From a virus, in the UHGV virus genome UHGV-0036853: DNA of 64,000 nucleotides; one strand, written 5' to 3'. The position numbers are program-made. Within the stretch, counting starts at the first letter, position 1. Each line of letters starts with the position of its first letter. This document shows, in pieces, positions 9,001 through 18,000 of this stretch.

Positions 9001-12000
9001 TGAAAACGTCTGCCTGTTTTTGAATGTGAAGAAAAAGCCTTGCCAGCTCCATTTGCTCACTACGAGACAAGGGATTATCAAGAGGGCTTTTTGCAAAAGC
9101 GGCTATACGCTGTGCGTCAATGCCAAACATCAGCGCACCTCACCATCTTTATGGCTGGAGTTAACTTCCGCCATTAAATGTCTGACGTAATCGACAAGAG
9201 AGCCGCCTGGTGGAATCTGGCATTCCTCAACTAACTGGAAGTAGATATCCGCTGCATTACGTGTATTGCTACCCGCGCATATTCTTTCTTCCCGAAGTGC
9301 ATGAAGCTCGTTGATCAAACGGTCACACTCTCCGTTACGCTGATCCACAACGGCCTCAAGCTCTGCGACGCGTTCACCTGGCGTCTTACCTTCTTTGCGT
9401 TGGATGGTAACGACGAAATCGCCAATTGCAGGGACGTTGTAATCCAGCTCAAGGTAGTTTTTGGCACCGCTGCGGACGAACTCACCCGCGAACATAGTGG
9501 CGAACATCGCAGAGACCACTTCGCCGTTGAAAAGTGACTCCAGATCTAACGGAGTCCCGGCAGCAATAGCCTCTTTTGCTGTATCCATTGCATCCATGAA
9601 CCGATCAAACTCACTAGCGCGCTTTTCCAGGTCTTTCCATTGCTCGCTCCAACGTTTGGCAACGAAGTCTATGAATGTTTTCGCGGATTCATCAAAATTC
9701 CCCTCAAACTTAACGATGCCTTTATCAATAATGATCTGGCCTACCGCATCCTCTGCATAACCTTTCAATGTAAACTTGAAAGGAAAATCAGAATGGCCTG
9801 TGACGTTAAAATGCTCTAACTGGAGGTTGTTCATGTGTTTTTCTCTTATCGTTTAGTTACTACATTCTTACACAAATTAAGTAAGTATTTACCTATCATT
9901 TAACGCGTTTGAAAACGTATACGCTGACTGTGATCCCTGTGTCTTCAAACTCGTTGGTAAACGACTTCCCTCTGGCATAAACGTAATTATCCATCGTCAT
10001 CCAGTCCAGTATTGGCGCAGTGCCCGGCAATACTGCTACAAGACGCCCGCCGACTTTCAGATGCCCCAGCGCAGCCATCGTGTGCTCTCTATGACGACCA
10101 AGCGAGTACGGCGGGTTCATAACGATTTTGTCGAACTGATAACCTGCGTTGTCCTCAGACCACTTTATGAAGTCGCAGCAAATCGTGTTCGTATACCCTT
10201 TTCCACGCAGGATATCAGCGAAGAGAGGTGCGATTTCTATGCAGGTAACATCTTCCAGATCGGCGTTAATATAGGCCAGAAGATCCCCACGTCCGGCTTG
10301 AGGCTCCAGCAGCTTCTCACCAGGCTTCAATTCAGTGGCTCTGGCAACGTACTCAGCAATCAAGCGTGGGGTAGGGTAGAACTGGTGTGATTTTGTATCC
10401 GGTATTAAACCGGTAGCCACAATCGTATTTAGCGTATGGCCGATGTCATACGGGAACTGCCAGTGCTTTTTCTCCTGCACGCCGCCAATGAAGCTCAGTG
10501 TGCGCTCAAGCTCTTCCACCTGCGACTTCTGGAGAGCTGAATCAGAGAAGTACCATACGCCTTTGTCTTTGCTCAATCGCCCGTCACGAAGCGCAGTGCG
10601 AACCGGCACGGAGATCGTCTTCTGGATTAAACCGAACTGCTTTGGTGCCCGTGTTTTTGGCGCAGTTCGGCATGGCGCGGGGATTGCAGCAGGCATACTG
10701 TAAGCCAGCACCTCATTCAACTTCCAGGCCACGTCAGGATGTATTTCAAAGTGAACGTTGCCGTTCTTGAACATCTTCACGCGCATCAGATTTCCATCGA
10801 CGTTCATCCAGTCACCGGTCTGGCAGTCGTTTGCCCTATACGCAGCTGATAGCACCTCAGCAGTGCGGTTGATGGTAATAAATTCTTTGTGCGCGAAGAA
10901 ATGAAGCAAGACACGCAGATCGTCGATGTAGTCCTCTTTGCGATAGTTCACGCTAACGCTGTCCCGCCAGAAATCAGAAATGCAGTCAGCGATTATCAGC
11001 CGCTCGCTGAAACCGTTTGTCTTATTTGTCTTGTGCGCAGGACTCAGCGCCTTAAACAAGCCATACACGCGCTCAGAGAGATATTTGTGCCTGTCATTCA
11101 GCAAATTAAGCATCGTGGGTATGACCGTTTCTGCTTTGAACTCCGGTACACCAACGAACTCTTTAACTTTCATCTGGTAGCCGGTTCTGTCAGTTTTGAT
11201 GACTTCCTGTTTGCCCTCTATAAACTGCTCGCGCCACTCATCTCGACGGGAAGCTGGCATGATCAGCAAAACGTTAGTCATGTCCGTGACCTTCCTCCAG
11301 TACTCGGCCCAAATATTCTGTTTCACCCATTCCAGATCGACTTTATCCAACCAACCTCGATTTAAACGCGAGCGATCTTCATCTGGTCGATGGTTTAGTC
11401 TCAGCAGGCGATTAATCATGTTGTGGCGTTCGTCGCCATAAACGAAGTCGTGTACCTGATACATGAAGGCGATCTCTTTCTCGCACTCGGCCACGATTTC
11501 GTGGATGACATTCATTTCCTGACGATAGTCGATAGCCGTGTTTGAGCTGGCATCGTCGATGATGGAAAGGGCTGTATTCATAATTACACCATTAAATAAT
11601 TTGTTTTCTTATTGGTGTAATTATCGCAAACTTGAAAAGGCATAAAAGCTGCATTCATAGGCGTTACAGCAGATTTAAGGCATAAAAATGGGGGCTTTCG
11701 CCCCCTGTCGACTGGTGCAGTATTAGAGTGCGTATTGCGTTTTGTGCGGCTGCTTATTCAAGTCATGGCGATGCGTGAGCTCCCGCATCATGTCTTCAAG
11801 GCGACTCTTTGTGTCGTCGAGCTGGTCGGCCATTGCACCTAAAAGCTGGCGAACGGCCATCGGATCGTCGCTGTTTAGTGATGGCATTTTATAACCTGCT
11901 TTAGAAGACATAAGGTTAATTGCAGACATCAACATCGTTAGAGAGGATTTAAGCCCGGCAATTTCACGATCTTTGCTGGCAATAATCGTCTCACTTTTGT

Positions 12001-15000: not shown

Positions 15001-18000
15001 TTAAACCTGACGCCAGTGACGCTTACCCCCACCCATCAGGTCGAGTCTCCAGTCTATGACTGGAAACTATCAGATCTTAGCACTTACAATTCACCTTATG
15101 AATAGTTTGTACTTATCTATTATTTCGATTGATTATTTTCTCGACCATGTAGTTGAACATTCAAGGCAAACACCTCGTTGATCAACTCACCTAAAAGCTG
15201 TTCAACAAGTTCGCGATGCTCCCCAAGATGCAAGCACTTAATTGCCCATTCGTACAAGTTGAAAGCCTGCTCGCGATCTTTCATCATTTCACGAGCCTTA
15301 GCCAGAAAATCGCTCTCTACGAGCGCAACAACATTGGTCGGGTATGACATGTTAGTTTTCCTTAAAGTGGTTCATAAAATCGATTTTAAAGCGTCTGAGA
15401 AGGGGTTCTAGTGGATTCTGTAGTGATGTTCAGGTCTGGAGTCTCTGATACAAAACAGCCTGCTTCCGTATATTAATAATTAATATGTAGTTATTTATAT
15501 ATACAGAAGCAGGCTAATTACAGACGCCAGAACAAACTAAGCAGCCTTCTTTGATGGTCTTTTTTTCCTGATCACATTCGCAGGATCATACCCTCCCAGA
15601 CTTTTCATGACGTCCAAAGGGATCTTGCTTATAGAGTGCCCAGCGTCCTGACAGAATCCTCGAAAAACAACGAGCATACTGCCACCGGGGTTGATGTTTA
15701 CTTCTACCTGACCCAAATTGACGTCAGGCTCGACAAACGCTACGCGGCCACCAGACAGAATAATCGTCTCATTCGCATACTCTGTTGCACGCTCATACCA
15801 CTTTGTATCGAGGGATTGAGGAATTAGCATCACTGTTGTAACTCCGCGAGCCTGCTCACGTATAGCCGCATCAATCCAGGGGGAGATTTTGGAGTAGGGT
15901 GGATTGAGGAAGGCAATTGTACCTGGCTGTCCCCATTCAGATTTCAAAGCATCACGCTCAACGCCTATGAAATTAGGCAGCTTTGCGTTGTCCTTGTTGC
16001 AGGCAACGTCAACATCAAATGTCACTCCAAGATAACGTTGAATGGCAGAAAATAGCCAGTCAGGTGTTCTCCAGAGGTCACGAAGAGAGTTGTCGCGCTT
16101 TCGCTGTTTGATTTTTTCGGCTGCAATCATCTTCTTTCTCGATAGGTAAGTGATTACCTATTTTTGCATTTGATTTTATGTATGGCAATCAAATAAAACG
16201 CGCCAGAAATGCGAACAAGAAGCTCTCTGGCGCGTTTTTGTGGCGCTGGGTATGGGTTAGCTTACCCAGCACTATAAAGCTCTCTATGGGCTTTATTTTC
16301 AGTAGGGGAACGTCATCCAATAGTGTACTCCGCGACAAACTTCTTAACGATCGGTGATTCTTCGTTCAATGTTAGATTTCCACCGTCTCTAACGGCAATT
16401 CCTGTAGCTGGAAATACAGCCATCATTTGCCCAGCCTGAGTTGACGCAGTGTTAAGCGGATACGGTTTTTCTGGATTGCTCATTAAAGCAATCTTAATAC
16501 TATTACTTGTAGCCTTCTTTTCTGTGAGAAGGTGTCTCATGGAAATTACCGTGTAAACACTAATATCTGGACCTCCGCTAAACCAATTAAGAAGGTTTAA
16601 TATCTTATCCTTTGCTTTGACAGGCGCGTTTTCGTAAGCGTCTAAGAAGATATCTGTTTCTAAGCCTGCTTTATTGAAAAACGAATCATCTTTATCACTT
16701 AAAGTAAAACGAGGACCTCTTGCAGTACGAGCTTTTTTATTTGTATTGCTATCATTTGACTGTTGAACTTTTAATTCATCATTAACCTCAACACACTCTT
16801 CAACCTCAATCAATCCCAATTGTTCTGGCTCGTTTTCGGCAGATTCAACACTTTCAGCGTTAATTACGTTTATAGGCTCATGCGCTAACTCCAACTCATT
16901 TAAAGCAGAGCTGAAATCACCTGCTTTTTCTTCATTGAACAGTTCTTCGGCAACATCATCAGAACTCATGGCTACGCCAGCATCGAGGCCGAGCAGCAGA
17001 TCGTCAATATCATCAGTATTTTCAACCTGTGCGGCTTTTTTTACTGGTTCATCAAGTGATTGCAACATGGCTGTCAGCTCGTCCAGATCATCATTTGTCA
17101 TTACATTTTCAACCGAACTCATGTAAGTCTCCTTCTGTTTGGTTACATTTGCGTTTCGATGGCTATATTTTGACTAAACCTATCAGGCGGAAAAGTGTTA
17201 AATGAAGGTAATAGAGTCATAAACGGGTCATAGTTCTGATGATTATGTGTTCCTGATTGCTTTACAAATAAGCAAGCAAACTTACACATGTTACTTTTTG
17301 TGATTGAGTTCACAAAAAACACCTTTCATAAAGGTTATTTATAACGCTGTTTTTTATGTTTTTATGGCAAGAAAAATGGAAGCATCAAGAAAAGATCAAA
17401 TTAGCAACTTATTAATAAGAGCTGTTATAGCTATAGCCGTAGTTGAATACATTTATCTTTTTGCAAGATACTTTTAATAGAAAAACCTACTTTAAATTGA
17501 ATTTAAAGTAGGTTTTGTTTTAGGATATTTCAGTAGGCAATTTAAAAAATCCGTACTTATTACGTGCCTTAAAGAAGCATTGCATCATTAAGTTTGTGTC
17601 ATATAAGGCACTATGTGCTTTGGCATGATCGTATATAAAGCCAAGAGAGAAGGCCAACTCTTCAAGGCGGGGACGTTTACCGTCTTCTGTGGCCCACAAT
17701 CCCGATAACATAGTATCTATAACAGGAACGTCTGGCAGTCTTACTCCATACCCTGAAAACTCGTGTCGAATAAATGGTATATCAAACGCTTCACCGTTAT
17801 GAGCAATCCACGCACTACATGCCCCCATATAAGCGCCAATTTCGCTGGCATGATTTGACAACAAAGGTTCAGCTGCGAGCTGTTCCAATGAAATGCCATG
17901 AACGGCTTGAGCTTTCGGATCTATGTTTCTGCGAGGGTTAAAACGCATCTCCAGACTATCAATATGTCTCTGTGTCTCCAGTTCATAGCGGGTAATTGCG

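Follow-up and report, generated by a model that had tools for sequence, protein, structure and literature searches.

Two putatively orphan adenine-methyltransferase genes of an SSU5-like phage-plasmid, the larger joined to an N-terminal DUF4942 module

Why would a mobile element carry two adenine-methyltransferase genes in its replication region and no restriction endonuclease beside either of them? The question is raised by UHGV virus genome UHGV-0036853, of which we analyzed a stretch of 64,000 nucleotides (hereafter the window). A first-pass annotation had placed two adenine-methyltransferase genes here, one for a compact Dam-like enzyme and one for a 561-amino-acid (aa) protein with a C-terminal NPPY domain and a large N-terminal part, and had read both as orphan anti-restriction functions. 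Both open reading frames (ORFs) were confirmed on the minus strand, each with an NPPY motif:

9896-11581, minus strand: DUF4942-methyltransferase fusion gene, 561 aa, PHROG 6263 (full-length PHROG match, E-value 1e-299)
15537-16130, minus strand: phage Dam-type N6-adenine methyltransferase gene, 197 aa (PF05869, E-value 2.2e-38; TIGR01712)

For the pair as a whole, the balance of the evidence tips slightly toward two orphan DNA adenine-N6 methyltransferases that protect the element's own DNA from restriction. The large N-terminal part is not peculiar to the 561-aa gene; judging from its relatives, the fusion is the normal architecture of the family.

The first-pass annotation saw no adjacent endonuclease, and neither did we. 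Searches with Pfam, NCBIfam, PHROGs and PADLOC found no restriction-endonuclease domain in the neighboring ORFs (including 9130-9834, 11723-12289 and 16313-17122), which were checked by sequence profile only and not by modeled fold, and the annotation of a plasmid 98.6% identical to the region contains no restriction enzyme. A weak PADLOC REase_II match in the ORF at 7450-8004, 1.9 kb off, was not significant (E-value 0.0039, 14.7 bits). The adjacent cognate endonuclease of a Type II restriction-modification system is thus lacking, as is the Type IIG/IIL combination of an N-terminal endonuclease, a gamma-type methyltransferase and a C-terminal recognition domain. A nuclease or Type IIG/IIL (MmeI-like) reading of the N-terminal part was likewise rejected, as it found no support in fold or motif. 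The same pattern recurs among relatives of the large gene: all five contexts compared (the window, two IncHI-type plasmids and two lambdoid prophages) hold other orphan methyltransferases and no restriction enzyme.

The composition of the window provides a further line of evidence. Counting palindromic hexamers with a Markov-expected count of at least 5 in the window, we found that 14 of 57 occur no more than once, a level of depletion reached by only 0.1% of non-palindromic hexamers. The depleted palindromes include (observed/expected):

AAGCTT: 0/15.9
AGCGCT: 0/14.4
GCATGC: 0/10.3
GGCGCC: 0/10.0
GAATTC: 0/8.4
CCATGG: 0/8.4
CTGCAG: 1/13.9
GAGCTC: 1/11.2
CTCGAG: 1/9.9

This depletion looks like passive restriction-site avoidance. 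Read from base composition, avoidance of 6-bp palindromes this strong shows that the element is under real restriction pressure. TGATCA is not avoided (observed/expected 0.94). Together, the site avoidance, the relatives without a restriction enzyme and the position of both genes in a replication module (described below) form a context that fits the orphan anti-restriction reading.

The 561-aa protein was expected to consist of a C-terminal NPPY methyltransferase domain preceded by about 380 aa of unassigned sequence. The C-terminal domain and the large N-terminal part were both borne out; the N-terminal part is not unassigned, since it contains DUF4942 at residues 140-295. The domain search that the first-pass annotation had proposed for this part returned this Pfam family, and residues 1-301 are homologous to stand-alone DUF4942 proteins. 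The start codon is backed by 561-aa database proteins of 99% identity, one of them annotated 'DUF4942 domain-containing protein', and it is under this name that the gene already stands in public records. The AlphaFold model has a mean predicted local distance difference test score (pLDDT) of 83.3. The layout is as follows:

11222-11581, minus strand: N-terminal region, residues 1-120, mostly helical (predicted structure and conservation among 136 family representatives)
10679-11221, minus strand: DUF4942 core, residues 121-301 (Pfam match at 140-295)
11000-11047, minus strand: near-invariant loop LSxxHxTNxPxGFxxR, residues 179-194 (conservation)
10397-10678, minus strand: basic proline-rich linker and small alpha/beta domain, residues 302-395, joining DUF4942 to the core (secondary structure)
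9896-10396, minus strand: methyltransferase core, residues 396-561, and stop codon
10283-10309, minus strand: motif I (S-adenosylmethionine (SAM) binding), LEPQAGRGD, residues 425-433 (aligns with M.TaqI motif I)
10106-10117, minus strand: motif IV (catalytic), NPPY, residues 489-492 (conservation)

Residues 396-561 are a class I SAM-dependent amino-methyltransferase core with a (D/N)PPY motif, and a seven-stranded Rossmann-type methyltransferase fold is predicted for them. Pfam barely picks this part up (N6_Mtase, E-value 0.045). With phmmer, residues 403-494 aligned to M.TaqI, with motif I preceding NPPY; the PADLOC models for MADS mad2 (2.5e-15) and Type II methyltransferases (2e-10) also matched, and percent identity was highest to the DNA methyltransferases CamA (27%) and M.TaqI (25%). 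Across the 136 representatives, L425, E426, P427, A429, G430 and G432 of motif I are at least 90% conserved, and conservation is complete or at least 90% at N489, P490 and P491 of motif IV. At about 165 residues, this is a minimal core. The protein stops 69 residues past NPPY, with only the last core strands remaining, and although its motif order is gamma-like, it lacks the C-terminal target-recognition domain found in M.TaqI-type enzymes. A word-indexed search for homologues of the core alone returned mainly fragments and short core-only proteins. Because the fold and NPPY are common to RNA and protein amino-methyltransferases too, DNA is the most likely rather than the demonstrated substrate.

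What does the N-terminal module contribute? PF13708 (DUF4942) matches residues 140-295 with an E-value of 1.7e-20 (74 bits against a gathering cutoff of 25). It was found in 18 of 18 members of the family alignment, and no other Pfam family was found in these members. A 282-aa stand-alone DUF4942 protein aligns to residues 1-301 (E-value 5e-13, about 20% identity). Modeled separately, residues 1-395 gave a confident structure (pLDDT 83.0). No solved structural relative of these residues was found, and the family profile retrieved nothing from PDB sequences; a Foldseek search of the model against viral models gave a single match, an unnamed 247-aa protein (E-value 2.7e-4).

Conservation within the module is uneven at its start and high thereafter. 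Residues 1-80 are poorly conserved and residues 81-120 well conserved (W95, T102, M108, P109, W116), as are I300, P301, G366, F376 and Y378 in or near the linker region, residues 302-395, which has an isoelectric point (pI) of 9.7. In the loop at 179-194, conservation reaches at least 90% at L179, S180, H183, T185, N186, P188, G190, F191 and R194. With pLDDT below 50 at residues 183-186, the loop is predicted to be flexible, and it may make contact with a ligand or substrate. Mean column identity is 0.66-0.70 in the N-terminal core and 0.61-0.67 in the catalytic blocks. Recognition domains of restriction-linked methyltransferases differ according to specificity. Since the N-terminal module is conserved as strongly as the catalytic site, its invariance suggests a single, unchanging ligand or feature of the substrate. 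Separately, we observed a beta-hairpin insertion of about 20 residues in the SSU5 group (residues 121-139, window positions 11165-11221; predicted strands 124-130 and 136-142). In other family representatives, residues 121-140 are 81% gaps, and by this comparison the hairpin is a lineage-specific insertion of the SSU5 group.

The family is large. An exhaustive search with residues 1-395 yielded 614 clusters at 50% identity, and because nearly all the best matches are proteins of 500-590 aa in which the match runs through residue 395, the DUF4942-methyltransferase fusion appears to be the normal, ancestral and fixed architecture. By tblastn, at least 5000 plasmid records, including 3377 from conjugative plasmids, matched the 561-aa protein or parts of it. 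IncHI2-type plasmids carry full-length fusions of about 31% identity near a Dam-family gene, and in lambdoid prophages (Variovorax; Enterobacterales bacterium) fusions lie in early regions and adjoin N6_N4 and C5 methyltransferase genes.

Each half of the fusion also occurs separately. At least 5000 plasmid records, of which 92% are conjugative, carry DUF4942 alone (YdiA/YgfB, about 282 aa). On IncI/K plasmids it is the leading-region gene nearest the origin of transfer (oriT), adjoining oriT/nikA, and on the IncL plasmid pOXA-48 it lies in the leading region among klcA and ssb; its leading-region companions on these plasmids are ardA, klcA, ssb and psiB. The stand-alone genes that we located are:

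L001:8974-9822: stand-alone DUF4942 gene
L005:13824-14672: stand-alone DUF4942 gene
L011:6989-7849: stand-alone DUF4942 gene

DUF4942 families rank with the largest of those enriched in leading regions (families 24 and 76; Samuel et al. 2024, Supplementary Table 1). IncF plasmids carry the core alone, as a 187-aa gene of the leading region (31% identity over residues 400-517, E-value 3e-14), and according to PHROG profiles the core is also found inside giant phage proteins of 1259-3925 aa. The IncF gene has a neighbor of its own:

L002:7506-9477: IncF leading region, with the 187-aa methyltransferase gene 46 bp downstream of the gene for a 453-aa DUF3560 protein

We found no similarity of DUF3560 to the DUF4942 module. 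In this pair, the adaptor-plus-core arrangement may have a counterpart made of two genes. The suggestion that the N-terminal part is a target-recognition domain is not secure, because DUF4942 occurs alone in thousands of conjugative plasmids, and so wide a stand-alone distribution is hard to square with a function in recognition only.

The smaller gene is more familiar. As the first-pass annotation proposed, it encodes a compact Dam-like enzyme, with scores above the cutoffs of both PF05869 'Dam' (132 bits, cutoff 28.1) and the TIGR01712 equivalog (114 bits, cutoff 97.05). Its catalytic motif aligns with that of the phage Dam of VT2-Sakai:

15894-15905, minus strand: motif IV NPPY of the Dam-type enzyme, residues 76-79 (aligns with NPPY of VT2-Sakai Dam)

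The VT2-Sakai enzyme is 39% identical to the 197-aa protein (E-value 3e-31), a GenBank note on its gene links it to T1 M.T1 and HP1 Orf13, and 1981 phage records hold relatives of the 197-aa protein. The C-terminus carries about 20 basic residues more than phage Dam-type relatives. GATC is the reported target of M.EcoVT2Dam (PMC6602927). The 197-aa enzyme probably shares this specificity, although an identity of 39% leaves some doubt; the window shows no avoidance of GATC (observed/expected 0.86). Membership of the protein in the non-specific Hia5/Hin1523 family was considered and rejected: Hia5-type enzymes are related to Dam but have DPPY and a length of about 281 aa (PMC3299994), whereas the 197-aa protein belongs to PF05869 and has NPPY. 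By profile and alignment, the 197-aa protein is an ordinary, minimal phage N6-adenine methyltransferase and a full PF05869/TIGR01712 member, and public records already list its gene as 'phage N-6-adenine-methyltransferase'.

The element that houses both genes can be placed from its matches. The 6.2-kb region matched 704 plasmid records, mostly non-mobilizable and of about 110 kb, from hosts that are mostly E. coli, Klebsiella, Enterobacter and Salmonella (best match 98.6% identical). Among phage records it matched Escherichia phages Cyrano, PhiR41_1 and CMS-2020a at about 97% and Salmonella phage SSU5 at 83%. Because of these joint plasmid and phage matches, the window can be identified as part of an SSU5/pHCM2-like phage-plasmid. 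Both methyltransferase genes lie within a long minus-strand block of replication and nucleotide-metabolism genes. Nearby members encode NrdA/NrdB, thymidylate synthase (ThyA), dihydrofolate reductase, a DnaQ-like exonuclease, RNase H, a TerB protein and an HD protein, and farther along are genes for a DnaE-like polymerase, a DnaB-like helicase and an ATP-dependent ligase. The window is the replication half of the phage-plasmid, and its landmarks, together with two ORFs between the methyltransferase genes, are:

739-1839, plus strand: ApbC/Mrp-like P-loop nucleoside triphosphatase
12587-13012, minus strand: TerB-family protein, between the two methyltransferase genes (PF05099, E-value 1e-5)
13304-13798, minus strand: ORF between the two methyltransferase genes, 'BRCT domain-containing' in a related record (no Pfam match here at E-value 1e-5)
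28414-29628, plus strand: Rep3-type initiator
38018-41536, minus strand: DnaE-like DNA polymerase III alpha subunit
43048-45156, minus strand: CobT-like VWA protein
51514-52836, minus strand: ATP-dependent DNA ligase
55492-56832, minus strand: DnaB-like helicase

In a related plasmid, metG adjoins apbC.

Upstream of each methyltransferase gene, pattern and consensus matches revealed candidate signals:

11580-11705, minus strand: upstream region of the 561-aa gene (pattern matches)
11690-11705, minus strand: terminator-like hairpin after the preceding gene, upstream of the 561-aa gene
11580-11595 / 11609-11624, minus strand: 16-nt inverted repeat covering the start codon of the 561-aa gene
16160-16238, minus strand: upstream region of the Dam-type gene (consensus matches)
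16195-16238, minus strand: perfect 13-nt inverted repeat followed by a T-run, upstream of the Dam-type gene
16160-16188, minus strand: promoter-like site upstream of the Dam-type gene

The arms of the 16-nt repeat are 94% complementary across a 13-nt spacer, and the RNA fold of 11560-11722 has a z-score of -3.2; the start codon of the 561-aa gene would be hidden within the hairpin. The half-site AATTACACCA has no second copy elsewhere in the window. The repeat might control translation or serve as an operator. Each gene follows a terminator-like hairpin, which hints that each is a separate transcription unit.

Taken together, these results suggest a mechanism in which both enzymes would methylate the element's DNA during replication and so confer resistance to restriction in current and later hosts. 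The 197-aa enzyme would do so as a minimal phage Dam-type methyltransferase, probably at GATC. The 561-aa protein belongs to a large family restricted to mobile elements, in which an M.TaqI-like core of 165 residues has lost the C-terminal recognition domain and a fixed N-terminal module, DUF4942 plus the small basic domain, would engage the substrate in its place. Its target would be constant. It could be a sequence motif, short or degenerate, or a structural property, for instance that of replicating or single-stranded DNA; a recognition sequence that diversifies would be at odds with so conserved an N-terminal module. The ORFs, folds and motifs, the lack of a restriction partner, and the architecture and spread of the family are results of the analysis; a DNA substrate, an anti-restriction role and targeting by DUF4942 are what we infer from them.

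Several observations weigh against this mechanism. The hosts are already Dam-positive, and a GATC enzyme would add little against restriction there. Because the adenine-containing palindromes AAGCTT, GAATTC and CTGCAG are strongly avoided, the element's methylation does not seem to be a blanket protection of adenine-containing sites. Structure and profile searches detected no DNA-binding fold in the N-terminal module, which at a pI of 6.9 is not markedly basic, and the stand-alone DUF4942 records hold no fused or adjacent gamma-type methyltransferase. Our literature search found no functional study of DUF4942 or of the DUF4942-methyltransferase family.

The stand-alone proteins also bring in the explanation that survives best among the alternatives, unlikely as we judge it to be: that the 561-aa protein is a two-function ('polyvalent') protein, in which an autonomous DUF4942 establishment or anti-defense module, binding for example a host factor or incoming DNA, is coupled to a promiscuous core without a recognition domain. 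In those at least 5000 plasmid records, DUF4942 stands alone in leading regions and has no gamma-type methyltransferase in its vicinity, and its stand-alone forms keep the signature residues S180, T185, N186, H277 and N289; the core, too, is found alone on IncF plasmids and inside the giant phage proteins. Yet the fusion with its fixed junction is nearly universal among close N-terminal relatives, both halves are conserved together over their full length, which suggests one functional unit, and no catalytic or inhibitor-like fold was detected in the N-terminal module.

Dam methylation acts in the packaging of phage P1 and at some plasmid origins, and methylation here might similarly serve the element's own biology, as an epigenetic signal in replication control, packaging or the lysis-lysogeny decision. 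We consider this improbable. It would accord with the place of both genes inside the replication module, with the hairpins that hint at separate transcription units, and with a conserved N-terminal module that suggests a single fixed target; in Dam-positive hosts, an extra GATC enzyme might also be better explained by the pace of rapid replication. However, relatives occur in elements as unlike as lambdoid prophages and IncHI plasmids, and as separate parts in IncF and IncI leading regions. The replication and packaging systems of these elements are unrelated, and such a spread is more in keeping with a function that is general and portable, for example restriction evasion. That the 561-aa protein modifies host RNA or protein, with DUF4942 as substrate adaptor in host takeover or anti-defense, seems very improbable, given that the sequence matches and top identities described above favor DNA enzymes (M.TaqI, CamA and the Type II and mad2 models) and that the gene repeatedly adjoins other DNA methyltransferases.

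SSU5-like phage-plasmids occur commonly in E. coli, Klebsiella and Salmonella, and the way in which they get past restriction barriers affects their host range. DUF4942 is among the most abundant uncharacterized genes in the first-entering region of conjugative resistance plasmids (IncI, IncK, IncL pOXA-48), and the fused form ties it physically to an adenine methyltransferase, which provides a testable entry point to its function. We would go further only tentatively, in an idea that we judge unlikely: DUF4942 might be a new-fold module acting on incoming or replicating mobile-element DNA, and the fusion a 'Rosetta stone' that places the stand-alone YdiA/YgfB in methylation or restriction-evasion pathways. 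YdiA/YgfB could possibly deliver methyltransferases to single-stranded or newly replicated DNA for promiscuous or structure-directed methylation. A methyltransferase directed by a short motif or by structure, if that is what the 561-aa protein is, would be of practical interest as a tool. Both genes had been spotted correctly by the first-pass annotation, yet both were already annotated; the small one is routine, and the large one comes from a widespread, experimentally untouched family.

How does the pair compare with known systems? The gamma-class enzymes of the M.TaqI, M.BseCI and CamA type have a C-terminal target-recognition domain; the 561-aa protein is without one and has instead a 395-aa N-terminal module that has no structural relative. 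The stand-alone plasmid DUF4942 proteins resemble it in their homology over residues 1-301, in shared signature residues and in a mobile-element setting of establishment and anti-defense, but they are about 282 aa long and without a methyltransferase domain, and the 561-aa gene lies in a replication module and not by oriT. The IncF 187-aa 'class I SAM-dependent methyltransferase' has a homologous core and is likewise an orphan on a mobile element; it stands alone, whereas the 561-aa core is fused to the DUF4942 module.

Experiments on another methyltransferase encoded in a leading region, M.EcoGIX, showed that it protects an entering plasmid against restriction (Fomenkov et al. 2020, PMC7736820). 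The single-strand-specific enzymes M.EcoGIX and M.BceJIII are, like our putative pair, orphan N6-methyladenine enzymes of mobile elements without a restriction partner, and are a possible functional analogue. They differ from the 561-aa protein in being beta-class and 227 aa long, with an N-terminal DPPY before motif I; in the M.EcoGIX-type 'DNA methylase' of an IncI plasmid, DPPY is at residues 27-30 and motif I at 169-177. Membership of the 561-aa protein in the M.EcoGIX family was rejected, as BLASTP matched only the motifs (E-value 0.022). The 197-aa protein has its closest counterparts in the phage Dam-type mini-methyltransferases (VT2-Sakai Dam; T1 M.T1, HP1 Orf13), with which it shares the position of NPPY.

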